64,000 nucleotides of DNA from Promethearchaeota archaeon (GCA_048938855.1 JBHLLT010000016.1:123-64122); one strand, 5' to 3'; numbered from the stretch's first letter, positions 22,896 to 39,900 are shown. A program made the numbers and translations. Notes: a model not told the origin generated them from the letters alone.

Positions 22896-25800
22896 ATGAT
22901 TAAAATGAATATTTCTAAACGTACTCAAATAAAAGGACTTAGTGTTATTCTACTTATTACGATAATCCCATTAATTATAAGTATATTACCAAGTTCATAT
23001 GTAGATAGAGATAATTCTGTCGTGACCGATAAAAATGAAGGTTTAAATAATCTACAATTAGGGTTACCACCAACAACTTATGATTGGTGGAACAATTCTT
23101 GGAACTTCAGAGTGCCCGTGTCCATTGAAGCAGTAGGGAGTCAACAAGACGCCCCAGTTGAGTTTTTCATAAATTTCACAAAGTACTTTAAAGATTTAGA
23201 TATAGAAAATCCTGAGTTAAACACTTCCACAATCCGAGTAATTGAATATCTCTCCAGTTCTAATTATTATGAAGTTGAGAGTCAATTTGATCCTTATTCA
23301 AGTTCTTATGACCATCAGGAAAATGCTATAGGAGATTTAATTTGGATATTAAATGGTACAACTCCAAATGGACAAACACGAGACTTTTTCATATATTTTA
23401 ATAATGGTACAGATTTTAGTATTCCAGAATCAAATTACGATACTATACGACTTTGGCATGAAGGTTTTGAAGAATATCAATCTGGAGATATTGGAAGACC
23501 AACTGATGGACAAGATATTCAACCAACTTTCTGGGAAATTAGTAATTCAACTTCTGCAAGAGGTAGTTCTTCACTTCATATTTGGGGAAATTGCTGGAAA
23601 TGGTCTGCTACAGGTTCTATGACCGTAAATTCAGATATGAGAGTCACAGCAAAAATGAGATTTGATGATCCAAGTATTCAAAGAGAAATTTCAGGGATTG
23701 GTTTTGCTAATAGCCCTACTAATATTCCTGCCACTGGAAATAGCTATCGCATTAGAGGATCTCAATCATGGGGAACTGCTGGAGGAAATAAATATGTAAA
23801 TCAATATTATACTGCAAACACCTTTTTCTGGTATACATTTATCCCTAGCACCGAATTTTCTCTCAGCTCATTCACATACATTTTTTATATAGCAGATGAT
23901 GATAGTTGGAATAGTCTTGATTTATACTGGGATGATATTTCAATCTGGAATAAACCAGTTCAAACCACTCCCAATAATTCACTTCAAACGACAATAGGAG
24001 ATATCCAACCAATTGCGTACACAATGAAGGTTATCTGTAAAGATGAGGATGGTAATCGAGTTCATAATGCACATATTTATTTAACCAATAACCTGTTCCC
24101 CTCCTATAATCAGGATCATTTAACTGATGAGAATGGAGAGTGGACTTTTGATAATATTGAAAAAGATGCATTCTATAATATTACAGCTAATTATACTCAA
24201 AACGGTCTTAGTAATCCAAAAATAGCTACTGTATTTTACTTTGAAGACTATCAAATCACGCAATTAAATAATCGAATAACTGCTTATCTTAACCTATCTA
24301 AATTCAATTTTGATATAAAAGATAAAGACAATGATCCTATTCAATACGGTTTTGTTCTACTTAAAAATGGTACAGAAACGGTCGGAAAAGCAGTTCTTAG
24401 TGATTCTGGTACAGGATCCATTATATGGATTAATAATACTGCTTATAATTATGAAGTCTACTATGATTATGATTCACTACCAGATATATCAACCTATAGA
24501 TATTCAAATCTACAAATTTACAGTGCACCTGCAACAAAAAATATTGATATATCAACTGAGATAACTAAAATAGTTTTTAATGTTACTGATTTTGTAGATA
24601 ACCTCCCATTTACAAATGCCAAACTAAGGTTCTATAATGAATCGGACTATGACATCGAAAGCCAAATTATCGCTAATGTTACTGTTGATATAACTGGATT
24701 AGCAACTTTTATTTCATTCAGCAACACTTATGGAACTTGGGGAAACTATACAGTAGATATATATTTCGGTGGAAATGAACGAGATTTTCACACAAATGGA
24801 GGTCCATTGGAACATGAATATAACTTTATTTTAATCGATGAGAACTATTCAGAAATCAAAATTCCCTTAAATAAAGATCTGTATAACTCTACAATTAATA
24901 TTATCAGTTATACATCTAATGTCTTTTGGGGAGATGATATTTCTATATATTTCAATTTTACTGCTCAAGATCCTCTTCTACCAAATCCAACATTAGTGGA
25001 TCCAAATGAACTGACTGTTCAAATATATGAAGAACAAATTACTCCTTATGGCGAAGAAGTAAATATCTTATCTTCGAGAATTTCTACTGGCTTTTTTAAT
25101 TATACATTTAATACGGTAGATTTTAATCTAAGAGGGGATTCTGTTTATTACTTCAGAATTACAGGAAATTATAAGAGTTACATATTTATTGCCTTAGATG
25201 TTAAATTTATATTCATCCAAGGACTACCAACTGGTATATCTTATTATGACTACTCATTAACAAAATTGACTGATAAAAAATTTTCGGTAATATTTGGAGA
25301 ATCTGTTAATATAACAGTTGATTATTTTAATTTTTATACTAATGTTTCCTTAGATGGAGCTTATATCACATATAATTGGGATTATGGTTCCGGAATACTT
25401 CTTGATGATCCATTACATGCAGATTACTATTATTTTGAATTTGATTCTTCAACATCACCTAATAGCGCTGAATATATTATTGATATCGAAGCAACTCTAA
25501 CAAATTATAGTACTATCGATGATTCAATTATCGTTGCTATCCAGCCTAGACCCACCACTATTAATGGAACAGCTACATTATTTCAGATGTCACCAAATAT
25601 ATTTGTTTTTGATCAAGTTAACTTTTTATTCGAATATAAAGACACGCTACAAAATCTAAGACTCGGAAGTTTGGATGTCATTAGATATTATTGGAATAGG
25701 TTAGATGAAAATGGAGATCCTCTTAGTGGTCCTGGAAACGAAGGAAGTGGATTTTTAGGTACTGCAGTAAACAATTTATATATTCTAGATTTCGATACAG

Positions 25801-26555
25801 AATCGAGAGAAGTTGGAGAATATTCTATATTTGTTACTATGCAAAAAAATAATTATGAGGTCAGAAATGCGATTATTTTATTGACTATAAGCAAGAGGCC
25901 AATAACAATGCATTTAGATGCTACAGGATTATCTGGAAGTAGAATCAGTGTTGTTCAGGGAACTCCAATTAATTTCAGCATTGTTCTTACTGATGAAACT
26001 TATGGAATCCAACTATTATCTGGCGCAAATATAACACTATGGCTTAATGGAATTGAGATTTCTGTTGACGAAGTTTCTGGTTCACCCGGGACATATGAAT
26101 TATTCTTTCCTACTGCCAATATTAATGCTTTCTTTTTACCTCAAACATTGATGGGAGAAATTACAGTGGAATTAGATAATTATGAGATAGATCCAAGGAC
26201 TATTACAATTGTAGTAAGAATGACAGAAATTTTTCCTGGATTTCCATTGTTTTACTTTTTACTGATAGTAGCAGCTGTAGTAGCTATAGCAGGTAGTTTA
26301 ACTGCATATCGTATGATTCAAAGAGCTAGAATTCCCACTTTTGTAAAGAAAGCAAGACAGATGAAGAGTTTTATTAAATCTAAAAAGACAATTTCAGATT
26401 CTTTATTATACCCCTCCAAGGAGGAATTCATTATACAGAAACTAGGAGATAAATGGGATCAACTTGGATTATCATTAAAAGATATTTATGGCAAAGAAGG
26501 AAAGAAAAAGAAAGGGTTACCAGAATTTAAAAAAGAATTAAAATCAGGTGAATAA
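22896..26555 (+). CDS. giant single-pass surface protein, module 1 (signal/anchor, DUF2341-like domain, CarboxypepD_reg-like beta-sandwich repeats, C-terminal TM helix, conserved cytoplasmic tail)
   Basis: 1219 aa. The N-terminal hydrophobic segment is LSVILLITIIPLIISIL. YDWWNNSWNFRVPVSI...IRVIE...FFIYFNNG resembles DUF2341. Repeats such as VICKDEDGNRVHNAHIYLTN...DENGEWTFDNIEKDAFYNITANYT are prealbumin/CarboxypepD_reg-like. There are many N-x-S/T sequons. The TM helix is FPLFYFLLIVAAVVAIAGSLTAY, followed by a basic tail of about 95 aa. Confidence 0.8.
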   Translation: MIKMNISKRTQIKGLSVILLITIIPLIISILPSSYVDRDNSVVTDKNEGLNNLQLGLPPTTYDWWNNSWNFRVPVSIEAVGSQQDAPVEFFINFTKYFKDLDIENPELNTSTIRVIEYLSSSNYYEVESQFDPYSSSYDHQENAIGDLIWILNGTTPNGQTRDFFIYFNNGTDFSIPESNYDTIRLWHEGFEEYQSGDIGRPTDGQDIQPTFWEISNSTSARGSSSLHIWGNCWKWSATGSMTVNSDMRVTAKMRFDDPSIQREISGIGFANSPTNIPATGNSYRIRGSQSWGTAGGNKYVNQYYTANTFFWYTFIPSTEFSLSSFTYIFYIADDDSWNSLDLYWDDISIWNKPVQTTPNNSLQTTIGDIQPIAYTMKVICKDEDGNRVHNAHIYLTNNLFPSYNQDHLTDENGEWTFDNIEKDAFYNITANYTQNGLSNPKIATVFYFEDYQITQLNNRITAYLNLSKFNFDIKDKDNDPIQYGFVLLKNGTETVGKAVLSDSGTGSIIWINNTAYNYEVYYDYDSLPDISTYRYSNLQIYSAPATKNIDISTEITKIVFNVTDFVDNLPFTNAKLRFYNESDYDIESQIIANVTVDITGLATFISFSNTYGTWGNYTVDIYFGGNERDFHTNGGPLEHEYNFILIDENYSEIKIPLNKDLYNSTINIISYTSNVFWGDDISIYFNFTAQDPLLPNPTLVDPNELTVQIYEEQITPYGEEVNILSSRISTGFFNYTFNTVDFNLRGDSVYYFRITGNYKSYIFIALDVKFIFIQGLPTGISYYDYSLTKLTDKKFSVIFGESVNITVDYFNFYTNVSLDGAYITYNWDYGSGILLDDPLHADYYYFEFDSSTSPNSAEYIIDIEATLTNYSTIDDSIIVAIQPRPTTINGTATLFQMSPNIFVFDQVNFLFEYKDTLQNLRLGSLDVIRYYWNRLDENGDPLSGPGNEGSGFLGTAVNNLYILDFDTESREVGEYSIFVTMQKNNYEVRNAIILLTISKRPITMHLDATGLSGSRISVVQGTPINFSIVLTDETYGIQLLSGANITLWLNGIEISVDEVSGSPGTYELFFPTANINAFFLPQTLMGEITVELDNYEIDPRTITIVVRMTEIFPGFPLFYFLLIVAAVVAIAGSLTAYRMIQRARIPTFVKKARQMKSFIKSKKTISDSLLYPSKEEFIIQKLGDKWDQLGLSLKDIYGKEGKKKKGLPEFKKELKSGE
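26546..26551 (+). promoter_or_regulatory. Shine-Dalgarno-like site for the module-1 partner gene, embedded in the last codons of the surface-protein gene
   Basis: AGGTGA lies 6 nt upstream of the ATG at 26558 and is complementary to the archaeal 16S 3' end (..UCACCUCC). The equivalent site occurs in all three modules. Confidence 0.55.
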
Positions 26556-26557
26556 TA

Positions 26558-27661
26558 ATGCCAATCGGATTAATCATTATGAGATGGAACGAGAGAGTAG
26601 GTACTGAAATAATGAAGAAGTATCCTGAAGAAATAGAAATTACTGATGGGACACTTATGCAAATATATAGTACTCATGAATACAGTGGAGAATCTGGATT
26701 GATATGTTTAATGATTGGATCGTTAAACATTGCTTCTTATTACACTGGCCCTAAAAATGAACATTATGTAATTCTTTTATTAAACATCGATGAAGATCCA
26801 GATTCTTATGAAGAAGGTTTAGTAGATGTTTCTCGAGTTATTCTACAAAATTTAGATAATAATGCGTATTTTGACATGATACCTTCTCTTTTTCAGAGAT
26901 TAGCTGTCTATCCTACACTTAGTGCTGAACAAATACTTGCATTCACTTATTTTGATGAAGTCAAAAGAATGATCATTGATCGTTTAAGAGTAGATGGCGC
27001 TGTATCTAAATCAGAAATTATAATCTGGCTAAAAGATCAGTATAAACAGGGATTTCTTAATATAGATGCGGATATCATAGAATTAATTAAACGCAATATA
27101 ATTAAACAAGTATCAGTAAAAGGAATACCTTCAGAATTATTATTTCTAATTAATGATATTGTGTGTATGCGAGTTCCTCCAGTAAAATTAGTAAAAAATC
27201 CATTAGAATGGGGTTTACCTTCTACACTTGCAGAAGGTTATAAAATTGAAGTGAAAAAATATTTTCAAGCTTATCGACCTTCAGAAACAGATAATTTAAG
27301 AGTATTAGATGTTCTTACTAATCCACAAGCTTATGAAACTTTATGTTTATTAAGAACTGCTATTGTTACAAGAAATGAGCTAGAAAAATTAAAGAAGAAG
27401 GGCGTAGATGACCTTGATAATGTCTTAAAAATGCTATGGGAATCTCAAATAGTACAAATCTTTCGTGACGAGAACGAAAATGAGTACTATGCTCTTCTTA
27501 CTGATTTTTATATAGATCTGATGTTCCCAAAATATCTAATGAACATTATAAAAATGAATTATGAGAATAAGTCAAAAGCAGAACCAGTTTTAATAGAATA
27601 TCTTACTATATTAGAAGATAATTACATTAATATGAAAAGTACCAAAAAATCTAAAACATAA
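26558..27661 (+). CDS. cytoplasmic partner protein, module 1 (uncharacterised family: longin/roadblock-like N-terminal domain + winged-helix-like repeats)
   Basis: 367 aa with no TM helix. It starts MPIGLIIMRWNERVGTEI 2 nt after the upstream stop codon. It aligns over its full length with 32214-33326 and 38785-39900. Domain assignments are inferred from the predicted secondary-structure pattern only. Confidence 0.75.
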   Translation: MPIGLIIMRWNERVGTEIMKKYPEEIEITDGTLMQIYSTHEYSGESGLICLMIGSLNIASYYTGPKNEHYVILLLNIDEDPDSYEEGLVDVSRVILQNLDNNAYFDMIPSLFQRLAVYPTLSAEQILAFTYFDEVKRMIIDRLRVDGAVSKSEIIIWLKDQYKQGFLNIDADIIELIKRNIIKQVSVKGIPSELLFLINDIVCMRVPPVKLVKNPLEWGLPSTLAEGYKIEVKKYFQAYRPSETDNLRVLDVLTNPQAYETLCLLRTAIVTRNELEKLKKKGVDDLDNVLKMLWESQIVQIFRDENENEYYALLTDFYIDLMFPKYLMNIIKMNYENKSKAEPVLIEYLTILEDNYINMKSTKKSKT

Positions 27662-27666
27662 TACAT

Positions 27667-27682
27667 TTATTTTATTTTTTTT
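27667..27682 (+). terminator. oligo(T) terminator candidate after module 1
   Basis: TTTATTTTATTTTTTTT lies immediately after the stop codon at 27659-27661. Confidence 0.4.
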
Positions 27683-27831
27683 CAAAGATTTTTAAAGTAT
27701 AATTCTTATTTTATTAATTTATTAGCATTTCTAATTTTTTTGAGTTATGTGATAGCATAATATTTTATTTAACTTCTTTTATATTAGTGTTAAAATTTTA
27801 TCAAAAAATTATATTTTGATGATTTGAAATT

Positions 27832-30800
27832 ATGAAGATACAAAAAATAAATAGACGTCAATTAATTAGATCATCGCTATTATTAGCAATATTATTTCTT
27901 AACATTTATATCGGATTTTCAGTAAACCTTATTAATTCCAACTATGATAGTGATAATCTTATTAATGTTAAAAACACAGAAAATGATAAATTTTGCAACG
28001 AGTCTCTAAAATCTAGTGTTTTAGGTAATGATACTTGGTGGGATACTGATTTTGCTTATCGTCGATTAATTACTGTTACAAATCCATATGATATCAATTT
28101 TACAGACTTTGGCGTGAGTCTAATTCTTAATTATGCAGAGTTGGGTAGTACAATTCAATCTAATCTTGATGATATTAGAATCATAGAAAATAATCAACTA
28201 CGAAAATATACTGTTTCTAAAGATTATCCCAATATAGGTTTCGCAACTATTTGGTTTGACACTAATATAACGCAATCAACGACTGAAAGAGATACATATT
28301 TATACTTTGGAAATAGTTTAGCAGTAAATTCTGAAGCTAAAACTGTATCAGACAGTTTTGGTTGGATTAAAAATGGAGACTTCGAATTAGATAATAGTAC
28401 TGATCAATATATTAACCCTTATGGTTGGACTTTTTCGCATGATCAAGTAGATCAAATCAAAGATATTAGTGACCCAAGAGAAGCTTCAAATTATTCTCTA
28501 GATAGTTATAATAACTTCGAAAATAATCTTGTCAATATAAATGATAGAGAGATGGCGGAGAGAGTAGATTCAGGATATTATGCATATAAGTGGGGCGGTG
28601 AAGGCTCTTTTCTCCCTCAAGCAGCATGTAAAGACTATGTAGGAACATTTTATTCTTACCCTTTTAAAGTTCCAATAATAGAAGGAGGAAAAATTGGTTT
28701 ACATGTTTATCGCAATGTACGGACCTGGTTTTTCGAAGACCCAGATTCTTCTCTTCCTACAATTTCAAATGATGGCTATTTTTTAAGGCTTTGTAATGGT
28801 TCAGATTCGGAATATACAAATGAAGTTGATTTACATGAAAATATCGGTAGTGGTTATGAAAGCTGGATAGAAACATATGGAGGATTCGCTTATATTTCAC
28901 CAAATAGAAAAACATTAAGATATCATGATGAATTAAAGGAACATTTCCAATTAGACCCTGAAATATTTACTAGATCAAGTACAAGTTCTGACGGGGATTT
29001 GACTGGTTCTTTAGAAATTGATGTTTCTAATTATATGGGTAAGGAAATTTTCATAGAATTTGGTACTTGGGGCCCGGAAGATGGTGATATTCAAACAGTA
29101 AAGTCAGGATTCTTTCAAGTGGATAATATAAAGTTTAATTACACATTATCAGCACAAATTGAAGAACCCCAAGCTCAAGTATCATCAGTTGAGGTAGTTT
29201 TAAAAGATATTGATGGAAGGAGTGTTCCTACAGCAAATGTAATGATTGTTGACAATTCTTATGCAAAAGGATCATCTAATTATTATGTTGCGAACGGAAC
29301 AGGTATTAACGGGAGAGTTACTTTCAATAATATACCTATTGGTTATTATAATATTACTGCTAATTATACATTGGGATCTCAATCAATTGAAGTATTTAAT
29401 AGCATTGAGAAACGTATCGGTCCATATTATTTTAATGGAATAGATTATACTATTGATATTAACCTAAATCTCTGGACAATTGATTTTGAAATTGTAGATT
29501 GGGATGGTATTCCTTTGAAATATGGTTATATTGAGATTAATGAAAGTCTTGGAGGAGCTTTGTTAGATACACTGACACTAGACTCTTCAGGAAAAGCAAC
29601 CTTCCGATGGCTAAACAGTTCGAATTTCTATTATAGAGTTTATTATAATAATGATGATTATGGTATCAATTTTAGCCCTACTATTCTAAATGAGAGTTCT
29701 ATTTCTCGAAGTGATTATGTAAAAGACAACGTGAAATTTAGGCATCATACAATATATGTGAATCAATCTAGTATAGGGAGTTACTCAGTAAGCGAAAAGT
29801 TCTATACGGATGGTTCGCGAACTGTATTAGGAAATAAAAAGATAACCAAAGCAAATATTACTCTGAACAATATGGAAAATTATATGACAGATATCTCTGT
29901 TTATTACATTGATAAAGATGATTCAACTACAGGGAACCTTCTTTATTACAAAGAATATTCTGGTCAAGTTACAAGTGACTTTATTGAACTTGATATAGCA
30001 GAGATTAATAATATCAATCTATTGAATGATAATTACAAAATATATGGATTACTAGTTGAAGTTAATGGGTATAATACTTCACAATCTAATGGATTAATTA
30101 ATGTAAACTTTATTGAAACTTGTAATGTTAAAGTAAGAACCCCATTAGCAAGATTAAATATTCGTTTGACATATTTTAGTGATGTAGACAAAGAATATAA
30201 ACCATTGAGCGGAACAATTAAAGTGATTGATAATGCTACAGGATTCCATTTATTGAATTTATCAGCAATTTCAGATAGAGATGGATATGCTTATGCTCCA
30301 AAAAATTCTTATGAAACACCGTTTTGGTATTTAATTAACAGGGTGTATAATTTCTCAATTGATGTTGCTCACAATCCTAATGTAGATTTCAATATAACAT
30401 ATATCAATCCATCCCAATGGATTCCTGCTCCTGGTGAGAAAATTAAATGGTTTAACTATACACTTTATCAAAACTCATCAATCACTTTTAATGTAATCCC
30501 AGAAGTAGAAACAAATTTTACGCAATATGATACAGAGTTTAATTCATCTTTTGGAATGACTGAAGTGATATGGGGGGAAAACCTAGTTTTCTGGGCAGAA
30601 TTATTATCTACTGATGATGATTGGCAAACATCAGATTTTGTCCCACAGCCTCCTGGTAGTTGCATCTTAACAATAAAATTAGCAGGATCAGATGAAGTTT
30701 TGAAAACTCTAGAGATGAATTATAATGGAAATGGTAATTATACATTGACTTACAACTCTGGATTGATTTCAGCTGGGAATGATTGGGAATATTATAATAT

Positions 30801-32214
30801 TGAAATAAATGGATATCATCCAATTTATGATGATCCAACTCCGTTGGTTTATTTAGTAAAAGTATTAGCAAAACCTACTACGATTAGCGCTCATGACTAT
30901 AGTTCACTCAATCTAATACCTTCTAGAGAATATTCAGCATATTTCGATGAGTATATTAATATTACAGTTAGATATACAGAAACTGAATTTGGAACGGCTT
31001 TAACTAACGCTCTTTTAAGTTATGAATGGGTTGGTCTTAATCCAATTAGTATCTATTCAGATCCTATAAACCACGAATATTTTACATTTACAATTAATAC
31101 AGGCGATGCGCAGAGTACAGGTCTAAAAGTAATTAGCATTACTGCCTCTTTTGAAAATTATACTAAACAATCGGATTTCATTGTATATCTTAATATTCTC
31201 GAAAGAAAAACAACTCTAAATTCCAAATTAGATGACCTATCTTATATTAGCTCAAGTGTTTATGTTCAAGATCAAAGAAATTTCATTTTCATGTATCGAG
31301 ACGCCAACACTAATAATATAATTGGAGATTTGGCTATTCATAATTTTGTTTGGGAAGAATTATATGAAAACGGAACAAAAGTACCTGGTAGCTTTGGCTC
31401 AGGAAGCCTAATTCAAAATATAAATCATAGCTATACTTTAGATTTTAACACAGAATTAAAACCAGTAGGATACTATTTCTTGTATGTAACTCTTAAACAG
31501 GACAATTATAAACAAAAAAATGCCTTTATTTATTTGGAAATTATATTAAGAGAATTTACTGTAACTATTCAAGATCCCCAATTAGGTAGTAACAATCAAA
31601 TTATTATAACTCAAGGATCTGATATTGATTTTGAAATCCATTTATGGGATGATACTAGATCGATAGAGCTACAAAATGCTATTATTAAATTAAATTTTAG
31701 GGGAATAAATTATACTTTTAATGAAATTCTGACTGAATTTGGTATATATAACGCATCAATTCTAACTAGGAATATAGATACATTTTTTACGGCGCAAACA
31801 TTTGTAGGAAAGATCTACATTGAAGCAGCTAATTTCACTAGCCAAGAGTTTACAATCACAATCACAGTAAAAATGCAAGAAATATGGCCTGGAATGCCAA
31901 CTTTCTATTTCATTTTAATAACATCTGCAATTGCCGCTGTTGTAGGAAGTGTAGTTGGATATAGAGTTATAACGCGAGCAAGAATACCACAACATGTTAA
32001 AAAGATTAGAAAAATCAAAGGTTTAATAAAATCTAAAAAGATGATAGCAGAATCATTTACAGTGCCAACTAAAGAACAAATGATGGTAAAACTATTTGGA
32101 GATGAATGGAAAGAAATAGGATTGTCAATAGAAGAAGCATTAGGGATTACTGATATAAAAAAGAAATCTTCATTAAAAGATAATAAATCATTAGAGCGAG
32201 GTGAGATTGACTAA
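27832..32214 (+). CDS. giant single-pass surface protein, module 2
   Basis: 1460 aa. The signal/anchor is LLLAILFLNIYIGFSV. The DUF2341-like start is DTWWDTDFAYRRLITVTNP...IRIIENN...YLYFGNS. CarboxypepD_reg-like repeats include VVLKDIDGRSVPTANVMIVDN...GRVTFNNIPIGYYNITANYT. The membrane-proximal region, TM helix (FYFILITSAIAAVVGSVVGY) and tail are homologous to modules 1 and 3. Confidence 0.8.
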   Translation: MKIQKINRRQLIRSSLLLAILFLNIYIGFSVNLINSNYDSDNLINVKNTENDKFCNESLKSSVLGNDTWWDTDFAYRRLITVTNPYDINFTDFGVSLILNYAELGSTIQSNLDDIRIIENNQLRKYTVSKDYPNIGFATIWFDTNITQSTTERDTYLYFGNSLAVNSEAKTVSDSFGWIKNGDFELDNSTDQYINPYGWTFSHDQVDQIKDISDPREASNYSLDSYNNFENNLVNINDREMAERVDSGYYAYKWGGEGSFLPQAACKDYVGTFYSYPFKVPIIEGGKIGLHVYRNVRTWFFEDPDSSLPTISNDGYFLRLCNGSDSEYTNEVDLHENIGSGYESWIETYGGFAYISPNRKTLRYHDELKEHFQLDPEIFTRSSTSSDGDLTGSLEIDVSNYMGKEIFIEFGTWGPEDGDIQTVKSGFFQVDNIKFNYTLSAQIEEPQAQVSSVEVVLKDIDGRSVPTANVMIVDNSYAKGSSNYYVANGTGINGRVTFNNIPIGYYNITANYTLGSQSIEVFNSIEKRIGPYYFNGIDYTIDINLNLWTIDFEIVDWDGIPLKYGYIEINESLGGALLDTLTLDSSGKATFRWLNSSNFYYRVYYNNDDYGINFSPTILNESSISRSDYVKDNVKFRHHTIYVNQSSIGSYSVSEKFYTDGSRTVLGNKKITKANITLNNMENYMTDISVYYIDKDDSTTGNLLYYKEYSGQVTSDFIELDIAEINNINLLNDNYKIYGLLVEVNGYNTSQSNGLINVNFIETCNVKVRTPLARLNIRLTYFSDVDKEYKPLSGTIKVIDNATGFHLLNLSAISDRDGYAYAPKNSYETPFWYLINRVYNFSIDVAHNPNVDFNITYINPSQWIPAPGEKIKWFNYTLYQNSSITFNVIPEVETNFTQYDTEFNSSFGMTEVIWGENLVFWAELLSTDDDWQTSDFVPQPPGSCILTIKLAGSDEVLKTLEMNYNGNGNYTLTYNSGLISAGNDWEYYNIEINGYHPIYDDPTPLVYLVKVLAKPTTISAHDYSSLNLIPSREYSAYFDEYINITVRYTETEFGTALTNALLSYEWVGLNPISIYSDPINHEYFTFTINTGDAQSTGLKVISITASFENYTKQSDFIVYLNILERKTTLNSKLDDLSYISSSVYVQDQRNFIFMYRDANTNNIIGDLAIHNFVWEELYENGTKVPGSFGSGSLIQNINHSYTLDFNTELKPVGYYFLYVTLKQDNYKQKNAFIYLEIILREFTVTIQDPQLGSNNQIIITQGSDIDFEIHLWDDTRSIELQNAIIKLNFRGINYTFNEILTEFGIYNASILTRNIDTFFTAQTFVGKIYIEAANFTSQEFTITITVKMQEIWPGMPTFYFILITSAIAAVVGSVVGYRVITRARIPQHVKKIRKIKGLIKSKKMIAESFTVPTKEQMMVKLFGDEWKEIGLSIEEALGITDIKKKSSLKDNKSLERGEID
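32198..32205 (+). promoter_or_regulatory. Shine-Dalgarno-like site for the module-2 partner gene
   Basis: GAGGTGAG lies 8 nt upstream of the ATG at 32214. That ATG overlaps the upstream TAA by 1 nt (TAATG). Confidence 0.55.
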
Positions 32215-33326
32215 TGCCAATAGGATTAGTAATAATGAGATGGGATATAAAAGTGAGTACAGAAATCCTCGCTAAGTATCCAAGGGAACTGATTATTAGT
32301 GATGAGACTCTCATGCAAATTTATGCTGCTCATGAATATACTGGGGAGCCGGGTATGATTAGTTTATTAGTTGGGCCTTTAAACATTGCATCTTATTATA
32401 CAGGACGAGAAAAACCGCTCTATATCATACTATTACTAAACTTAGATGAAGACCCCGATACTTATGAAGGTGGTCTATCTGATATCTCACGAGTGATATT
32501 TCAGAATTATGAAGATAAAGCTTATTTGGATATGATTCCGTTTCTCTTTCAAAGATTATCCACTTATCCTAATTTAAATGATGAACAAAGCTTAGCTTTG
32601 ACTTATTTAGATAACGTAAATTGTTTGATAATAGAGAGATTAAGAGAAGAAGGGGTAATTACTAAGTCAGAATTAAAGATCTGGTTAAGAGATCGATATC
32701 GAGAAGGGTTTTTTGATGTAGATGCTATTTTAATGGAACTCATTAAAAAAGAAATCGTTAAAGAAACATCAGTAAAAGGAATGCCCTCCGAATTGATTTT
32801 TCTTATTAATGATCTTTTAATGATAAGAAGGCCCCCTATAAAATTACTAAAAAATCCTATAGAACGAGGACTTCCGGAGAGATTTGTAGAGGAATATAAT
32901 GTTGCTGTCAGAAAATTCTTTCAAAAGTACCGACCTTCAGAAGAAGATAATCTAAAAATCCTTGATCTGGTTATTGGAGACCCACAGGTCTATGAAATAT
33001 TGAGACTTCTAAGGATTTCAATAGTAACTAAGAATGTATTGGAAAAACTTCGGAAAAAAGGAGTGGACGATATAGATGGTGGTTTAAAGAAATTATGGGA
33101 AAGTCAGTTGATACAAGTATTTCAGGATAACAAGGGGAATGAGTATTATGCTTTAATTTCTGATTTTCATTTATCTTTAGTATATCCTAAATATATGCTT
33201 AATATGATCATTCAACAATATACTGTAAAATCAAAATCAAGTAGTGTTTTAATCGAGTATCTAAATGTTCTTGATAACAATTATCGATCTATCAAACTGA
33301 AAGCGGATGTAAAAGAAGAAGACTAG
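32214..33326 (+). CDS. cytoplasmic partner protein, module 2
   Basis: 370 aa starting MPIGLVIMRWDIKVSTEI. It is collinear with the module 1 and 3 partners. Confidence 0.75.
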   Translation: MPIGLVIMRWDIKVSTEILAKYPRELIISDETLMQIYAAHEYTGEPGMISLLVGPLNIASYYTGREKPLYIILLLNLDEDPDTYEGGLSDISRVIFQNYEDKAYLDMIPFLFQRLSTYPNLNDEQSLALTYLDNVNCLIIERLREEGVITKSELKIWLRDRYREGFFDVDAILMELIKKEIVKETSVKGMPSELIFLINDLLMIRRPPIKLLKNPIERGLPERFVEEYNVAVRKFFQKYRPSEEDNLKILDLVIGDPQVYEILRLLRISIVTKNVLEKLRKKGVDDIDGGLKKLWESQLIQVFQDNKGNEYYALISDFHLSLVYPKYMLNMIIQQYTVKSKSSSVLIEYLNVLDNNYRSIKLKADVKEED

Positions 33327-33335
33327 ATATTATTA

Positions 33336-33349
33336 TTTTTTTTTTTTTT
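33336..33349 (+). terminator. oligo(T) terminator candidate after module 2
   Basis: A T14 run begins 10 nt after the TAG at 33324-33326. Confidence 0.5.
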
Positions 33350-33367
33350 AAACTTTTAAACTTAATT

Positions 33368-34408
33368 TTATAGATTGCTTAAATAACCTTTTAATTTAAT
33401 TGCTTTTTCATGAAATTCCTTATAAAGATTATCATCGCCTAATTCTAAGCACAGATCTGAAATTTTATCAAAATACTCTGCGGTCTGGGCAATATCTCCG
33501 TTTTCTAAACTAACTTTCGCTTGGTGAATCAACTGATCTCTTTCGAATAAAGGTTTTAATAATGGTGAAGCATCAGTGCTAACTTCTAAGATATCTGCAA
33601 TAATTTGAATCATTTTTTCTCTATTATTTGGATCAATTGCTATCATTGAATATGTTTTCAAGCCAAGGATTTCTTCAATGTTTTGTATACTTAAAGCATT
33701 ATCCAAATCTTGTTTGTTACCTATAATAGCAGTATGGGTATAAGGGGCATGTTCCTTTACTAATTCAATAAAAAATTTGCTTTTTTCGACGTTTTCCAAT
33801 GTAGAGTCTGTAATGATAAGAACAGCATCACTTCCTTTAATAAAATCATTCCAGAGATAACTAAATTGTTCTTGTCCAGCAAAATCCCATAAATGAAAAT
33901 ATAATTTTCCAATTTTAACAGTTGAGATCTTCCCTGTTATAGTGGGGATATGGACAGATGGAATTTCAGTTGCGCAAATTAATGTTGTGGTGGTTGTTTT
34001 TCCAACACCAGAAAATCCCACTAATGAAATCTTGGTCTTAAGATTTCTATGGATAGAATCTACTATTGGATCAAGTAATTCCATCAGAGAAGAATCTAAG
34101 TTATCTATAGCATCACCAAAAGTATCTAAAAATTCTTTTCGAAGATTTGCTAATTCACTTTTAGATCGAGAGAGATCATCATTAATGTCGGTTATAAACA
34201 TAAATATTAATTTAAAATCCTCTTCTAATACAAAAATTATCTTATATTTAATATAATCATAACTATTGAGCTCAATACCAGTACCCTTTTTAGACACTTC
34301 CATTATTTCTTGGTAAAGTTTATTAAAATCTTCTTCTGATATTGCTTTACCGAAATTTTTATTGTAAAGTACTTTTTCATCCCTTAAAATATAAACTTGT
34401 CTTAACAT
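33368..34408 (-). CDS. small Ras-superfamily GTPase with N-terminal longin-like domain and C-terminal helical extension
   Basis: 346 aa. G1 is GFSGVGKTT, G3 is WDFAGQE and G4 is GNKQD. About 125 aa N-terminal to the P-loop (MLRQVYILRDEKVLYNKNF...YKIIFVLEEDFKLIFMFITD...) has a longin/SRX-like beta-beta-alpha-beta-beta-beta pattern. Confidence 0.75.
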   Translation of the reverse strand: MLRQVYILRDEKVLYNKNFGKAISEEDFNKLYQEIMEVSKKGTGIELNSYDYIKYKIIFVLEEDFKLIFMFITDINDDLSRSKSELANLRKEFLDTFGDAIDNLDSSLMELLDPIVDSIHRNLKTKISLVGFSGVGKTTTTTLICATEIPSVHIPTITGKISTVKIGKLYFHLWDFAGQEQFSYLWNDFIKGSDAVLIITDSTLENVEKSKFFIELVKEHAPYTHTAIIGNKQDLDNALSIQNIEEILGLKTYSMIAIDPNNREKMIQIIADILEVSTDASPLLKPLFERDQLIHQAKVSLENGDIAQTAEYFDKISDLCLELGDDNLYKEFHEKAIKLKGYLSNL

Positions 34409-34933
34409 ATTATCCAGTCTAATTTCTATAGAATTGTAGGAGTAAAAAGTCGATTATTTTCTTATTTAAAAATAAATTAAATGGTAATATTTTTCTTTGA
34501 TTCTACAATCTAAATTAAAATATTTAAATTTTTAGAAAATGACAAATATGAGTGGCATAATGTAGTATTAATTTATTCAAATTTAGACTCAAAAAAAAGA
34601 ATTAAGTGAACGTATTATATAGTTTACATAAATCTTTTAATTAATTATATATTTATTGGCAAGGACTTGAATTTATTTCTATTTACTATAATAATATCAG
34701 ATGTGAAAAAAACCTTCTCTGTGTTAACGAAATATTTGGAAATAACACATAATTCATTTCAATTTATGTTCAAATTGGTTTAAACCATCATTTTATTGGT
34801 ACATATTATATAATATTCTATAGTATTATCGTTGGATAAAAAGTTAAATACTAAAATTTGTATAATAAATGATAAAAAACTCTTTTTATTAAAAAAGGAT
34901 TATACACAATTTAAAAAATAAATTGAAATAAAC

Positions 34934-37900
34934 ATGAAAGGACTAAGAATTGATTCAAAGAAGGTAATTTCTCTTACATTTTTATTGATTCTCTCATTGA
35001 GTTCAGTTTTATTATTATTTCCATCAAATTTTTTGAATTCAACAGAATTCAATCAAAATCCAGAAGAAGATAAAAAAGATAATAATTTCCGCCCATTGTT
35101 AAATGGTCCAATAGGTGAAGATCCTTGGTGGAATGTATCATATCAATGGCGCCAATGTATCAATATTACAAATCCGGGAGATTATAATTTAACTAATAAT
35201 TTCATTAGTATTCAGTTTAATTATGCAACTTTACGTGATAATTATAATATGGATCCTAACCTATACGACGTTAGAATAGTAGAGAATAATGTGGTAAGAA
35301 AATATTATGTAAAGAAAGACTTTCCTAACCTCGATACCGCAACTATATGGTTCGAAAATAATGTTACAACAGGAGAATCTGAATATGATACTTATATGTA
35401 TTGGGGGAATGCGTCCATTAATAATCGTGGAAGTAAACATCTCAATTATGATCCATCTGGATCCTCTTGGTGGCAATTTGAAGAAGGTTCTGGAGGGTAT
35501 GATTCTATTGTTCATGATTCATTAGATAATGCTGACGGTCATCTTTATGGAAGTAGTAGTAGTTATTATCCAGATTATGATTCAGATAGTGCTGTTGGAG
35601 AATATTCAATAAGTTTTGATGGTTCGCATGATTTTATATATATTGAGGATTCATTACATTATACTAATCCAAATGAGATTTCAGCTGTAACTGTTAGCTG
35701 TTGGTTTAAAACATCATTTTCAAGTAGTGGAAATTGGGATAACTGGGCGTTTTTTGATTTTGATAGATCAGAATATTTCAATTTCTTTATCACTGGAAAT
35801 GGAAGAATAGGTTTTGCTAGTTCAGCTACAGGTTATAGCGGTCAAAATGACTTTTTTGGGAGCGTTTCAGGTTTGAATGATGGTGAGTGGCATTTTGCCT
35901 GTGTAGTTTATGATGGAGTTGACAAATACATATATGTTGATAATTATGCTCCAGAGATTTGGGCCAATGCTATGGGAGGAAATGCTTTTGGAACCGGTAC
36001 TGATAGATGGGGATTTATCGGCGATGGTTCTGAAGCTACAGCAGAAAATGGAAATAGAAACAATTTTTATTATGATGGAAATATTGATGAAATTAGATAT
36101 TTTGATTATGCTGTTAATCCTGATGAAATTCAATGGCTAGCAAATTATTATTCAATTGATACAAATTTATTATCTGTTACAGAGCGAGCTGCTGCAGTAA
36201 CTATCACAGTAAAAGATATTGATAATCGATTAGTTCCTGGAGCAGAAGTTTCTTTATGGAAAAACTCTACTGATATCTTAGTATTACGTGGTGTTCCATA
36301 TACTGAATATTCCTCATCAGATGGTACAGTGTCTTTCACAAAAGTGCCTTTTGGTTTTTACAATATTACTGTGAATTATACTCTCAATTCCGGTTTGTAT
36401 GAAGAAGTTGTTTATGATAGCAGAGTTCAACCTCCTGGTGAAGTAGAATTCAAGGGATTAATTGTCAATGTTAACGTTACTGCAGATCTTTGGACAATTG
36501 ATTTTGAAGTAAATGATTGGGATGGAGATCCATTTGACCACGGCTTTGTACAAGTGGGAAATGCTACAGATTATATATTAGAAACTTTAACTTTAGACTC
36601 TGGGGGAACTGCAACCTTTCGCTGGACTGATCAACCCAATTATAATTATACAGTATATTATGATAATGTAGATTATCTAGGAAATCCAACTCGTTTAAAT
36701 TCTAGTACCATTACATATACTGGGCCAGCAATTTATGTTGAACATGTAAGAACAAGTATGTCTAAATTAGATATAAGAGTTATTGATGACACAGAAACTG
36801 TACCTGTAGAAGGTATTACAGTTAGAGTTGAGAACAGCTCATCAGGTGTTCATATAATTGATCTTAAAACAGATGATAATGGTAACGCATACGGTTTAAC
36901 TAATAGTGATGTTGGCTTTTGGTATAAAAGAAATACTATATATAACTTATCCTTATGGGTTGTGACAGAACAACGTACATTCAGAGTAAATTCTTCAGAT
37001 CAAGCTTTTAATCCTTCTACAATTTTAGATTACTATGAATACAATTTAAATTCAAGTTCTTCCTTAGTATTTGAATTAGATTTAAACTACCAAAACAGGT
37101 TATCTCGATTTTATAATAATAGTCTCGTTGCTGATTATAGTGTTGTTTTTGGTCAAAATATGTCATTTTCGATTACGTTAGAAACTTCTGATACTGGTCT
37201 TCCCGGCCCATGGGTAGCTGATGATGGTGTTGGGACAACAATAAGTTGTATAATTAAAAGTACTGCTATTGGAAACCCTACTATATACACAAAGAATATG
37301 GATTATACTATAAATGGAACATTTACTAGTGAAATTAACTCGAGTCGTTTTTCTGCTGGTGACTATGGTAAATCCTATATTGTCACTTTATCAGGTGTTA
37401 AATCATACTATAATAGTCCTGAAGATATCTTATTTGTTATATCAATAGACTCAATTTCTACTGGTATGAGCTTCCATGATTATTCTTCAATGCCCGATGA
37501 ATTACCTATAAATGAAGTCTCTCAGTATTATGATGAATTAATCAATATAACAGTAAAATATTATGATAAAAATAATAATCAAACTTTAGTTGCGGATACA
37601 TTTACTTATACTTGGGATTATGGTTCTGGCACTGTAAATTCTGATCCTTTAAATCCAGGATATTATACAGTTGAGATAGATACATCAGCAGCTACTAATG
37701 TCGGCAAATATCTTATAAAATTCACAGCAGGACGAGAGAATTATACAAAAATTGATAATTATGGATTATTTATCAATATCTTATCAAGACCGACGACCAT
37801 TAATGGTGAAGATGGAATTTTATATATCTCCCAAGACATCTTCATATTTAAAGAATTGAACTTTACTTTTATTTATTTAGATGAGATGAAAGGTACGCCT

Positions 37901-38785
37901 ATTTCAAATTTAGATGAAATGAGTTATTTATTACAAAAGCTTGATGAAAATGGTGATCCTATACCTGGTACTGCCGAAACAGGTTCTCTAGTAGCAGGAG
38001 TAGATGAGTTTATTTTGGACTTTAATACAGAAACAAGGCTAGATGGAGAATATTCAGTAATTGTGACTTTAGACAAAATGAACTGGGATCACAGAATTGC
38101 TATTATTTCATTGACAATAATGAAAAGAGAAGCGGATGTTACATTACCTGAACCTCCATTTGTTGGTACCAAAATATCAATCGCTTCAGGAGCAGCTTTA
38201 AATTTTGCTATTACTCTTACTGATCCAAATAATGAAACAGTTCCAAATGCTCCGATAAGAGGAGCAAATGTATATTTAACTATACAAGGTAGAGATATTC
38301 CATTTACTTATAATGGCAGTGGTGTTTATATTATTCAACCAACAGTTATTGCTGATGCCTTTTTTATGCCTCAAACATTTACAGCTACTCTCACTATTGA
38401 GAAACAGTATTTCTCCACTTCGGTAACTAGTATTACAGTAGTAGTTAATATGCAAGAAATCTTTGGATTTCCTATGTTCTATTTCTTGATGATAGTAGGA
38501 GCGGTTGTAGCCGTCGTAGGAAGTTTAGTTGCTTATCGTACCATCCAGAGAGCTAGAATTCCAAAGTTCGTTAAAAAAGTGAGAGAAATGAAGAAAAATA
38601 TAAAAGGAAAGAAAGATATTTCAGAATCACTATTATATCCAACTAAAGATGAATATATTGTGAAAAAATTAGGAGAAAAATGGGAAGTAATTGGATTATC
38701 ATTAGATGAAATTATGGGTCTCAGAGGTAAAAAGTCTAAGAAATTACCCGGAATGAATCAAGAATTTAAAGGAGGTGTTGATTAA
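34934..38785 (+). CDS. giant single-pass surface protein, module 3 (DUF2341-like + LamG/concanavalin-like + CarboxypepD_reg-like repeats, TM, conserved tail)
   Basis: 1283 aa. The DUF2341-like start is DPWWNVSYQWRQCINITNP...VRIVENN...YMYWGNAS. The LamG_3-like segment is FDGSHDFIYIEDS...VSCWFK...WHFACVVYDGVDKYIYVDN...IDEIRYFDYAVNPDEIQWL. The TM helix is FYFLMIVGAVVAVVGSLVAY. Confidence 0.8.
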   Translation: MKGLRIDSKKVISLTFLLILSLSSVLLLFPSNFLNSTEFNQNPEEDKKDNNFRPLLNGPIGEDPWWNVSYQWRQCINITNPGDYNLTNNFISIQFNYATLRDNYNMDPNLYDVRIVENNVVRKYYVKKDFPNLDTATIWFENNVTTGESEYDTYMYWGNASINNRGSKHLNYDPSGSSWWQFEEGSGGYDSIVHDSLDNADGHLYGSSSSYYPDYDSDSAVGEYSISFDGSHDFIYIEDSLHYTNPNEISAVTVSCWFKTSFSSSGNWDNWAFFDFDRSEYFNFFITGNGRIGFASSATGYSGQNDFFGSVSGLNDGEWHFACVVYDGVDKYIYVDNYAPEIWANAMGGNAFGTGTDRWGFIGDGSEATAENGNRNNFYYDGNIDEIRYFDYAVNPDEIQWLANYYSIDTNLLSVTERAAAVTITVKDIDNRLVPGAEVSLWKNSTDILVLRGVPYTEYSSSDGTVSFTKVPFGFYNITVNYTLNSGLYEEVVYDSRVQPPGEVEFKGLIVNVNVTADLWTIDFEVNDWDGDPFDHGFVQVGNATDYILETLTLDSGGTATFRWTDQPNYNYTVYYDNVDYLGNPTRLNSSTITYTGPAIYVEHVRTSMSKLDIRVIDDTETVPVEGITVRVENSSSGVHIIDLKTDDNGNAYGLTNSDVGFWYKRNTIYNLSLWVVTEQRTFRVNSSDQAFNPSTILDYYEYNLNSSSSLVFELDLNYQNRLSRFYNNSLVADYSVVFGQNMSFSITLETSDTGLPGPWVADDGVGTTISCIIKSTAIGNPTIYTKNMDYTINGTFTSEINSSRFSAGDYGKSYIVTLSGVKSYYNSPEDILFVISIDSISTGMSFHDYSSMPDELPINEVSQYYDELINITVKYYDKNNNQTLVADTFTYTWDYGSGTVNSDPLNPGYYTVEIDTSAATNVGKYLIKFTAGRENYTKIDNYGLFINILSRPTTINGEDGILYISQDIFIFKELNFTFIYLDEMKGTPISNLDEMSYLLQKLDENGDPIPGTAETGSLVAGVDEFILDFNTETRLDGEYSVIVTLDKMNWDHRIAIISLTIMKREADVTLPEPPFVGTKISIASGAALNFAITLTDPNNETVPNAPIRGANVYLTIQGRDIPFTYNGSGVYIIQPTVIADAFFMPQTFTATLTIEKQYFSTSVTSITVVVNMQEIFGFPMFYFLMIVGAVVAVVGSLVAYRTIQRARIPKFVKKVREMKKNIKGKKDISESLLYPTKDEYIVKKLGEKWEVIGLSLDEIMGLRGKKSKKLPGMNQEFKGGVD
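38771..38777 (+). promoter_or_regulatory. Shine-Dalgarno-like site for the module-3 partner gene
   Basis: GGAGGTG lies 7 nt upstream of the ATG at 38785, which overlaps the upstream TAA (TAATG). Confidence 0.6.
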
Positions 38786-39900
38786 TGCCAATAGGATTAG
38801 TAGTAATGAGATGGGATGAAAGAGTTGGAACTGAAATTCTTGCAAAATATCCTGAAGAAATTAATGTAACTGATAAAACCCTAATGCAAGTATACAGTAC
38901 TCATGAGTACAGTGGAGAATCTGGTATGATAAGTTTAATGATTGGTTCCTTAAACATTGCCTCATATTATACAGGACCTGATAAAGGATTTTATATCCTC
39001 TTACTTCTAAGCCTTGATGACGATCCTGATTCTTATGAGGGAGGATTGATTGACATATCACGCATAATTATCCAAAATATGAAAGATAATGCTTATACAT
39101 CAATGATCCCTACTTTATTTAGAAGGCTTTCCGTTTATCCTACATTAAATAATGAGCAACGACTTGCTATTACATATCAAGATGAAATTAAAAGGATGAT
39201 TCTAAACCGTTTAAGGGATGAAGGGGTGGTATCTAAGTCGGAATTAATGGTCTGGCTGAAAGACCAATATAAACAAGGTTTTGTAGATTTAGAAGGAGTG
39301 TTAATTGAACTTGTTAAACGTGATATCGTTAAAGAAACATCAGTTAAAGGTATGCCTTCAGAACTTATATTTTTAATACAAGATATAATTGCTTTAAGAG
39401 TACCTCCGGTTAAAATGTTAAAGGATCCTGCTACTCGAGGTCTACCTGTACAACTTGTAAATGATTACCTCATGGAAGTTAAGAAATTCTTTCAAAATTA
39501 CCGACCAACAGAAGGAGACAATCTTAGAATCATAGATATTCTTATCAATCCTCAAGTTTATGAAACTTTAAGGTTACTAAGAACAGCGATAGTTACTAAA
39601 AATGATCTTGAAAAACTAAGAAAAAAAGGGGTAGATGATCTTGATGATGTATTAAAAGTGCTATGGGACACTCAAATGATTCAAGTTTTCCAAGATGAGA
39701 GGAATAACGAATACTATGCCCTCCTGTCAGATTTCTATCTGAATTTAATATTCCCAAAATATCTCTTAAACATAATCAAGAATGTATATGATCAAAAGTC
39801 TAAAGCAAACCAAGTTTTAGTTGAATATCTAACTGTTTTAGAAAATTCTTATCAAGAAATTAAAGCAGCTGCTAAAGCTGAAGCAAAAGCTAAAGTATGA
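38785..39900 (+). CDS. cytoplasmic partner protein, module 3
   Basis: 371 aa starting MPIGLVVMRWDERVGTEI. It is collinear with the other two partners. Confidence 0.75.
   Translation: MPIGLVVMRWDERVGTEILAKYPEEINVTDKTLMQVYSTHEYSGESGMISLMIGSLNIASYYTGPDKGFYILLLLSLDDDPDSYEGGLIDISRIIIQNMKDNAYTSMIPTLFRRLSVYPTLNNEQRLAITYQDEIKRMILNRLRDEGVVSKSELMVWLKDQYKQGFVDLEGVLIELVKRDIVKETSVKGMPSELIFLIQDIIALRVPPVKMLKDPATRGLPVQLVNDYLMEVKKFFQNYRPTEGDNLRIIDILINPQVYETLRLLRTAIVTKNDLEKLRKKGVDDLDDVLKVLWDTQMIQVFQDERNNEYYALLSDFYLNLIFPKYLLNIIKNVYDQKSKANQVLVEYLTVLENSYQEIKAAAKAEAKAKV

Follow-up and report, generated by a model that had tools for sequence, protein, structure and literature searches.

Giant surface proteins paired with longin-like partners beside a longin-Arf-like GTPase: a candidate transmembrane module of Asgard archaea

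Asgard archaea encode dozens of small GTPases and of longin and roadblock proteins, whose partners and functions are essentially unknown. In eukaryotes, longin-containing complexes regulate small GTPases: GATOR1 Nprl2/Nprl3, FLCN-FNIP and C9orf72-SMCR8 are GTPase-activating proteins (GAPs), and Mon1-Ccz1 and TRAPP are guanine nucleotide exchange factors (GEFs). To our knowledge, none of these regulator complexes has a membrane-protein tail or fusion. Longin and roadblock domains form dimers and serve as platforms for small GTPases (PMC10933270, PMC12290439). Asgard fusions of a longin domain to a GTPase have already been reported (Liu et al. 2020 preprint; Tran et al. 2024, PMC10933270; Zhu et al. 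2025, PMC11914678), and those papers give no partner or membrane client for them. From genome layout it is seldom possible to tell which regulator belongs to which GTPase, and in MK-D1 the GTPase genes generally lie outside operons with roadblock or longin genes (Tran et al. 2024, PMC10933270). Here we analyze a locus in a 64,000-nt stretch of DNA (the window) from Promethearchaeota archaeon GCA_048938855.1 (JBHLLT010000016.1:123-64122; G+C ~30%). It holds three pairs of genes, each encoding a giant surface protein and a smaller cytosolic partner, together with one gene for a small GTPase that has a longin-like N-terminal domain.

The best explanation of this locus is that it comprises three paralogous two-part transmembrane units and one shared small GTPase. 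By working principle, the closest described systems are MglB-MglA-type operons and the eukaryotic longin-GTPase regulators. As in MglB-MglA, a regulator of the roadblock/longin superfamily lies directly upstream of, and is translationally coupled to, a small GTPase at three related loci (L083, L085 and L087), and the GTPase retains the catalytic Gln and all G motifs. Unlike in MglB-MglA, the regulator is of longin, not roadblock, topology and has two winged helices added to it, the GTPase has an N-terminal longin domain of its own, and the window GTPase is adjacent to the partner but on the opposite strand. The Lokiarchaeia regulator is moreover tied or fused to giant single-pass surface proteins, and GAP activity is here only hypothetical. 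The attachment of longin/roadblock-GTPase machinery to the conserved tails of giant surface proteins is the distinguishing feature. Compared with the reported Asgard longin-GTPase fusions, the window GTPase has the same build, an N-terminal longin followed by an Arf/Rag-like G domain, but a specific longin protein and membrane proteins are linked here to one GTPase family. No description of a tail-partner-GTPase module was found in the literature searched, which did cover Asgard NPRL2-like and FLCN-like longins and longin-GTPase fusions. Through gene fusion, translational coupling and cross-class synteny, the locus supplies a GTPase-regulator match that joins one longin family, one longin-GTPase family and defined membrane clients, and hence testable wiring for one of the many unexplained 'eukaryote-like' Asgard GTPases.

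Gene pairs, their junctions and their conservation

All seven open reading frames (ORFs), the three tandem plus-strand pairs and the GTPase gene, were found where the original prediction, made from the sequence alone, had placed them. The features of the locus, including transmembrane (TM) helices, matches to a hidden Markov model (HMM) of the tail and domains taken from AlphaFold2 models, are as follows.

22896..26555, +: giant surface protein 1, ORF of 1219 aa
26223-26318, +: giant 1 TM helix (aa 1110-1141), hydrophobic segment
26319-26552, +: giant 1 basic tail (aa 1142-1219), charge +11, tail HMM match 5e-58
26558..27661, +: partner 1, 367 aa, predicted cytosolic and acidic, longin-like domain plus two winged helices
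27832..32214, +: giant surface protein 2, ORF of 1460 aa
31897-31971, +: giant 2 TM helix (aa 1356-1380), hydrophobic segment
31972-32211, +: giant 2 tail (aa 1381-1460), charge +7, tail HMM match
32214..33326, +: partner 2, ORF of 370 aa
33368..34408, -: longin-Arf-like GTPase, 346 aa, Pfam Arf match 8e-19
34040-34408, -: GTPase longin-topology domain (aa 1-123), AlphaFold2 topology
33584-34036, -: GTPase G domain (aa 125-275), G1-G5 motifs
33377-33556, -: GTPase three-helix C-terminal extension (aa 285-344), AlphaFold2
34934..38785, +: giant surface protein 3, ORF of 1283 aa
aa 249-400 of giant 3, +: Laminin_G_3 domain, Pfam 43.9 bits, cut-off 27.6
38456-38545, +: giant 3 TM helix (aa 1175-1204), hydrophobic segment
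38546-38782, +: giant 3 tail (aa 1205-1283), tail HMM match
38785..39900, +: partner 3, ORF of 371 aa
38785-39132, +: partner 3 longin-like domain (aa 1-116), AlphaFold2 and Foldseek
39151-39414, +: partner 3 winged helix 1 (~aa 123-210), profile against winged helices in the PDB
39511-39723, +: partner 3 winged helix 2 (~aa 243-313), profile against the PDB, C-terminal helices after it

The GTPase gene had been described as divergent between modules 2 and 3; it is divergent with respect to giant 3 (525-nt gap) but convergent with partner 2 (41-nt gap). The proposed spacing of 2 nt or a 1-nt overlap within each pair was confirmed, the junctions being TAA-TA-ATG in pair 1 and TAATG in pairs 2 and 3. 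A Shine-Dalgarno-like motif, GGTG(A) or GGAGGTG, lies within the last codons of every giant gene: GGTGA at 26547-26551, before the partner 1 start that lies 2 nt past the giant 1 stop; GGTGA at 32200-32204, before the partner 2 ATG that shares 1 nt with the giant 2 TAA; and GGAGGTG at 38771-38777, ahead of partner 3, which has the TAATG overlap with giant 3. Together, these motifs and junctions imply, at the level of sequence, that each giant would be translationally coupled to its partner, rather than the co-translation that had been drawn from the tight spacing. The regions upstream of the three giants shared no regulatory motif beyond AT-rich 8-mers.

We scanned 167 related loci (79 from genomes, 80 from metagenomes and 8 context loci) with HMMs for the tail, the partner and the GTPase N-terminal domain. 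A tail-bearing gene was located directly upstream on the same strand in 164 of the 176 unfused partner genes with a defined start, with gaps of -1 nt (82), 0 nt (43), 1-3 nt (35) or 42 nt (4), so that 160 lay within 3 nt. The -1 cases are TAATG overlaps, and in the zero-gap cases the giant stop codon is followed by an in-frame partner ATG; in principle, a little fused protein might arise at such junctions through readthrough of the stop codon or frameshifting. The pairing with tail-bearing surface proteins, which the original prediction had made a matter of conservation across genomes, is thus near-universal in Lokiarchaeia, and it recurs in the Asgardarchaeia, distant at the level of class, and as in-frame fusions. 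Because it recurs in 160+ independent contigs, the module arrangement is far beyond chance.

An exhaustive representative search gave 377 family clusters, nine of which (clusters at 50% identity) were fused, with ectodomain, TM helix, tail, a linker of ~30 aa and partner in one polypeptide. At the DNA level, tail and partner occupied a single uninterrupted frame in 30 independent metagenome contigs from many samples, among them a LAZR01 marine-sediment contig, ruling out assembly or gene-calling artefacts. The fused forms make up between one and three clades, and since identity among their partner domains has fallen to 54%, the fused architecture is old and maintained. At the opposite extreme, several genomes encode tail-only anchors (L045, 9558-10001; L140, L143, L144 and L156). 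These hairpin anchors are 135-147 aa long, combine two hydrophobic segments and the conserved tail with hardly any ectodomain, and keep the 1-nt overlap with the partner start. A stand-alone partner paralogue that has no upstream tail gene was seen in L035, L036 (4377-5489), L070 and L076, where it lies past a conserved methyltransferase gene and just before a normal giant-partner module. In many genomes the locus occupies a stable syntenic position, with the methyltransferase on one side and a RuBisCO-like gene on the other. One contig labelled 'Candidatus Nanopelagicaceae bacterium' (L019, DATKTW010000037.1) carried a giant-tail-partner module whose partner was 81% identical to a window partner, most likely because a contig from Lokiarchaeia had been mis-binned.

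The GTPase is linked to the module both by adjacency kept in Lokiarchaeia and by partner-GTPase operons at three loci outside that class. The order giant-partner, GTPase on the minus strand, giant-partner was found at ~30 Lokiarchaeia genome loci and also at metagenome loci, and 39 of the 43 ORFs with the GTPase N-terminal domain had a partner gene or a fused gene within 700 nt. A profile search with distant partner members gave at least 19 proteins, which we used for context look-ups and which extend the partner family to other classes of Promethearchaeati, the Ranarchaeia and Asgardarchaeia. The three operons lie in the Ranarchaeia contigs L083 and L085 and in the unassigned contig L087, none of which has a giant. 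Each encodes a GTPase of 277-280 aa directly after the partner and on its strand, with a 4-nt overlap in L085 and gaps of 10 nt in L083 and 12 nt in L087. Aligned with the window GTPase, this protein shows 30-36% identity across both the N-terminal and the G domain, and it lacks only the C-terminal helices. Such operons in other classes rule out a chance placement of a GTPase beside a duplicated but unrelated gene pair.

In the Asgardarchaeia loci L081 and L082, an Ig-like protein of 1324-1629 aa is encoded 3 nt upstream of the partner; like the other giants, it has an N-terminal WWN motif, and its TM-R..KIP tail is homologous to theirs. The order is altered in L084, though the components are still there: the locus has a longin-only paralogue, the partner, a 160-aa gene and a 2334-aa giant bearing the tail. 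Loci of the fused lineage (L135, L136) have, ~300 nt downstream, the gene of a GTPase orthologue that carries a long coiled-coil extension. Composite proteins of ~690 aa were also observed by fused receptors, flanking one in L113 (2509-4578, -, and 11833-13911, -) and several kb upstream of one in L136 (265-2349, -). In each of them a longin-GTPase with a degenerate DxxGQ motif (DYAGPE, DFTGEE, DFTGDE) is joined to a helical hairpin, a roadblock-like domain and then a second, intact Rab-like GTPase.

Surface proteins, partners and GTPase

Each giant (1219-1460 aa) has one hydrophobic segment at either end, as expected of the N-terminal signal or anchor and the single C-terminal TM helix that had been predicted. 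The cytoplasmic tail is conserved as proposed, but it measures 78-80 aa after the TM helix instead of about 95. The ectodomains are rich in sequons, with 27 in giant 1, 35 in giant 2 and 27-35 per giant overall, ~3 standard deviations above composition shuffles; partners and GTPase have 0-1. Their description as beta-sandwich modules is weakly supported: Laminin_G_3 in giant 3 was the only match above its Pfam cut-off, and CarboxypepD_reg, Big_1, MG4 and DUF2341 matches, like the weak Ig-like ones of giant 1, fell below. The tails are strongly basic (net +7 to +11), a charge that fits a cytoplasmic location, and the giants are probably glycosylated type-I surface proteins. Overall, giants are 28-33% identical to one another, but their TM helix and tail are conserved. 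Medians over 39 loci put identity to the window at 81% for the partner, 66% for the TM helix and tail and 47% for the alignable ectodomain. Because of this gradient, the fusions and the tail-only anchors, tail and partner are the conserved core of the module and the ectodomain is its variable, even dispensable, part. The charge of the tails is complementary to that of the partner longin domains (-7 to -11).

The partners are soluble proteins of 367-371 aa that start MPIGL(I/V)(I/V)MRW, as the original prediction had it, with 58-66% mutual identity and 73-94% identity across Lokiarchaeia. All named homologues, of the partner as of the GTPase, come from Asgard metagenome-assembled genomes, mostly labelled Promethearchaeota or Lokiarchaeia. 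The partner is annotated 'hypothetical protein' in every naming source, with a precomputed Pfam domain in none, and Pfam, NCBIfam, PADLOC and PDB sequence searches returned no family for the whole protein; its assignment to a known family with an unrelated role, which would have spoken against the original prediction, thus did not arise. Its only database sequence matches were weak winged-helix ones in the C-terminal half, and the N-terminal domain had no PDB sequence match.

The proposed longin-like platform domain emerged from structure prediction. An AlphaFold2 model built on a 38-sequence alignment gave aa 1-116 a five-stranded sheet in the longin order strand-strand-helix-strand-strand-strand-helix-helix (E4-9, E12-18, H30-43, E47-53, E56-62, E69-75, H81-97, H100-116), followed by helical units and winged helices. 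The predicted local distance difference test score (pLDDT) was ~77-87 across most of aa 1-120, but 39-51 at aa 11-30. The best Foldseek matches of this domain in the PDB were COPI zeta (top), VAMP7, Sec22b, GATOR1 chain C, TRAPP and LAMTOR; the longin matches 5mc7_A, 4b93_A, 1ifq_A, 2vx8_A and 7b6d_E had probabilities of ~1.0 and target TM-scores of 0.46-0.55, with weak E-values. Membership of the longin fold class is thus borne out by the modelled topology and weakly supported by Foldseek, without sequence-level homology.

The C-terminal part matched ArsR, SmtB, HlyU and MarR winged helices in Foldseek, also with weak E-values. Single-sequence or shallow-profile searches were blind to these winged helices, and a 60-member profile was needed to match PH1932 (E=2.6e-4, columns 248-317) and Mnd1 (columns 133-218) in the PDB; a few family members match HTH_20, HTH_5, TFIIE_alpha or TrmB. 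The winged-helix regions do not show the basic or polar recognition helix and positive surface of a DNA-binding domain, as judged from charge and sequence. Net charge is -2 to +1 in winged helix 1 and -2 to -6 in winged helix 2, and the presumed recognition helix, which aligns as VDDLDDVLKVLWD, reads DDLDDVLKVL. DNA binding by the winged helices is therefore unlikely.

The partner resembles eukaryotic longin GTPase regulators in having an N-terminal longin-like domain followed by further domains, and its GATOR1 chain C match once spans 317 columns. It differs from them in that this multi-domain match (7t3a_C) is weak (TM-score 0.22, probability 0.51) and that the partner has no NPR2, folliculin or DENN sequence match. 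The family consensus starts MPxGxxxxxWDxxxGxxxxAKYP, and among its nearly invariant residues are W10, G15 and P23, all in the first longin hairpin, and those of an R205-x-P207 motif. C9orf72 carries the motif W33-D34...G38-P39 (PMC12290439), and the partner has W10-D11-x3-G15 with equal spacing in its first beta-hairpin, a likeness that is a lead only. The partner differs from C9orf72 and other GAP-type longins in lacking an evident Pro of the GP motif that precedes strand 2, or a catalytic arginine finger: across the family, G15 is followed by T or a variable residue, not by Pro, and no Arg of the longin domain is nearly invariant. With the AP and COPI coats the locus shares what is predicted to be a longin fold, as in the sigma/zeta and the N-terminal mu/delta subunits, and the combination of membrane-protein tail, longin protein and Arf-like GTPase. 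The resemblance is at the level of logic only; the locus has no adaptin, appendage or mu-homology domain, and no coat components are linked to it.

Partner relatives with further domains were also observed. In P0164 and P0169 (~1020-1046 aa) a complete partner module is fused to SIR2_2 and TPR repeats, and in P0138 (459 aa) to a TIR_2 domain; SIR2_2 and TIR_2 are effector domains typical of defence or NADase signalling.

The small GTPase with a longin-like N-terminal domain was borne out by a Pfam Arf match of 68.2 bits (cut-off 22.3) and by an AlphaFold2 model (pLDDT 73) with a domain of longin topology at aa 1-123, a G domain and a three-helix C-terminal extension. The N-terminal domain has the same order of strands and helices as partner aa 1-116. 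Motifs G1-G5 are complete (GFSGVGKT, PTIT, WDFAGQE, NKQD) and the catalytic Gln is kept. Arf and Arl proteins came top in PDB sequence and fold searches, the G domain being close to Arl1, Arf1 and the Asgard GerdArfR1, and orthologues are annotated 'ADP-ribosylation factor-like protein'. The P-loop GFSGVGKT and switch II WDFAGQE are Rab-like in look, so any assignment to a subgroup would be provisional. The GTPase differs from Arfs in having no N-terminal amphipathic helix (often with a myristoylated Gly2): its start, MLRQVYI..., begins strand 1 of the longin-topology domain. A TPR-like C-terminal hairpin (LENGDIAQTAEYFDKISDLCLELGDD; window 33377-33556, -) is weakly like the C-terminal-extension repeats of the distant partner homologues P0223, P0180 and P0204; at 10-21 bits in a 10-sequence search, this is a lead rather than a finding.

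A possible mechanism and its rivals

We consider it fairly probable that the tail serves to anchor a longin platform, by which the GTPase is recruited to the membrane or regulated there. The fast-evolving ectodomain would face outward and the conserved basic tail of ~80 aa would lie in the cytoplasm. The partner would be in effect a detached cytoplasmic domain of the giant, made in step with it by translational coupling. We infer that the acidic partner docks on the basic tail, to which in some lineages it is covalently fused by a ~30-aa tether, and that docking would set the longin platform at the inner membrane face. There, the partner's longin domain may pair with the GTPase, longin to longin or longin to G domain, since longin/roadblock dimers regulate small GTPases and the GTPase bears a longin domain of its own, the usual dimer partner on offer. 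The partner could then bring the GTPase to the sites that the surface proteins mark, govern its nucleotide state (as GAP or GEF) or serve as its effector. Such a module would couple cell-surface proteins to a membrane-proximal GTPase switch, with adhesion, polarity, surface-protein distribution or local membrane remodelling as possible outputs.

Plexins have a cytoplasmic GAP domain, and integrin-talin-Rap1 couples a receptor to a small GTPase. By analogy only, the locus is like these receptors in its large Ig-like ectodomain, single TM helix and cytoplasmic module addressing a small GTPase, and the fused forms share the one-chain layout of plexins; the domains are unrelated, longin and winged helix as against RasGAP, FERM or talin. 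A broader proposal, that this is an undescribed transmembrane system of at least three Asgard classes in which a surface-glycoprotein tail is read by a longin adaptor that recruits or switches an Arf-like GTPase, with relevance to eukaryogenesis, is one that we put forward tentatively and regard as doubtful as a whole. If true, it would be a prokaryotic counterpart, and possibly an antecedent, of the cargo tail-longin adaptor-Arf logic of coats or of receptor-to-small-GTPase signalling, at the plasma membrane of cells without endomembranes. Should the predicted interactions hold, it could be tested whether GTPase switching tied to surface proteins predates eukaryotic endomembranes.

Several observations weigh against a tail-anchored platform acting on the GTPase. 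At the level of fold, the partner model has a mean pLDDT of only 67.6, and the Foldseek E-values behind its longin assignment are weak (2e-3 to 0.1). The longin sequence families (Longin, Sybindin, Clat_adaptor_s, NPR2, folliculin, uDENN) gave no Pfam match to the window partners at E<=1 and were not among the matches of 60 diverse family members at E<=0.1. The N-terminal domains of partner and GTPase showed no similarity by hhalign (probability 0.3), and a recent shared origin of the two is accordingly unsupported. At the level of gene content, the distant members L080 and L086 have no adjacent giant or GTPase, some loci (e.g. L036) have one or two modules and no longin-GTPase within the 10-kb flanks, and the window itself has three partners but one GTPase. 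The SIR2-TPR and TIR fusions of partner relatives further point to uses of the module beyond GTPases.

Some of the same facts would suit a structural anchor, in which surface adhesins are tied by the tail-partner unit to a scaffold under the membrane or to the cytoskeleton, in the style of integrin-talin or cadherin-catenin, the GTPase having a loose role or none. The partner is exceptionally conserved in Lokiarchaeia, as hub and scaffold proteins tend to be, the ectodomains vary, and loci such as L036 manage without a longin-GTPase in their flanks. Cryo-electron tomography of Lokiarchaeum ossiferum has moreover revealed unidentified 'complex surface proteins' and an actin cytoskeleton beneath a single membrane (PMC9834061); whatever their role, the giants are candidate identities for these proteins and would give them a cytoplasmic connection. 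An anchor of this kind would not account for the giant-free partner-GTPase operons of Ranarchaeia or for the conserved adjacency of the GTPase, and Pfam searches found no known cytoskeleton-binding domain in the partner; we therefore judge it unlikely. The SRP receptor offers another precedent, since SR-alpha has a longin-like SRX domain and SR-beta is an Arf-family GTPase. The longin fold and membrane Arf-like GTPase recall SRX and SR-beta, the SRP-SR entry 7obq_y is among the weak Foldseek matches, and the pairing is one-to-one and translationally coupled, so partner and GTPase might be dedicated biogenesis factors that target, insert or quality-control the giant. A fused partner, being the last part of the chain made, cannot however guide that chain's own insertion; tail-only anchors with almost no ectodomain still keep a partner, and partner-GTPase operons exist without giants. 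These facts make a biogenesis role very unlikely.

Ranked just behind it, and also very improbable, is a membrane-tethered transcription factor of the ToxR/CadC kind or one acting by regulated release, with the giant as the sensor that holds or releases a DNA-binding partner. The C-terminal half is indeed similar to ArsR, TrmB, MarR and TFIIE-type winged helices, and one source labels a relative 'DNA-binding MarR f...'. Yet the winged helices are neutral to acidic (-6 to +1) with the acidic recognition helix described above, many trafficking proteins of eukaryotes and of Asgard archaea make protein contacts through winged helices, neither a protease nor a release element was seen, and the strongest conserved linkage is to the GTPase. 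The SIR2_2-TPR and TIR_2 fusions, along with the fast evolution of the ectodomains, could instead be taken to mean that the ectodomains are virus receptors or decoys and that the partner signals infection. Surface surveillance of this kind would sit poorly with an extremely conserved partner and with a locus held, unlike defence islands, in stable synteny between the methyltransferase and the RuBisCO-like gene; PADLOC gave no match for partner, GTPase or giant 3, and we give this possibility the least credence of all.

Neighbouring genes

A RuBisCO large-subunit-like gene lies directly after module 3 (window 40005-41342, +). In L084, a RuBisCO gene (1-1075) is likewise near the partner, together with IF-2B-family genes, and its presence at both loci hints at old regional synteny.

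Upstream of module 1, at a distance of 1.4 kb, lies a Gtr1/RagA-like GTPase gene (window 20490-21431, +; Pfam Gtr1_RagA, 2e-16). Its P-loop, GLDNAGKT, is encoded before the frame's first ATG, GTG or TTG, so this gene would have either a non-canonical start or a damaged N-terminus; its syntenic counterpart in L045 begins MGLDFAGKT. Between this gene and module 1, a tRNA match at 21445-21549 (-) spans 105 nt against a 71-position model, which suggests that the tRNA gene contains an intron.

Near the end of the window, an Rfam PYLIS_3 match (46 bits; 62979-63076, +) falls within an MttB-family methyltransferase ORF (62011-63453) whose neighbours encode a corrinoid-binding protein (60451-61095) and a homocysteine S-methyltransferase-type protein (61123-62001). 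Because the ORF is uninterrupted by any in-frame stop, it looks like a non-pyrrolysine MttB homologue, and the RNA match probably reflects coding similarity.

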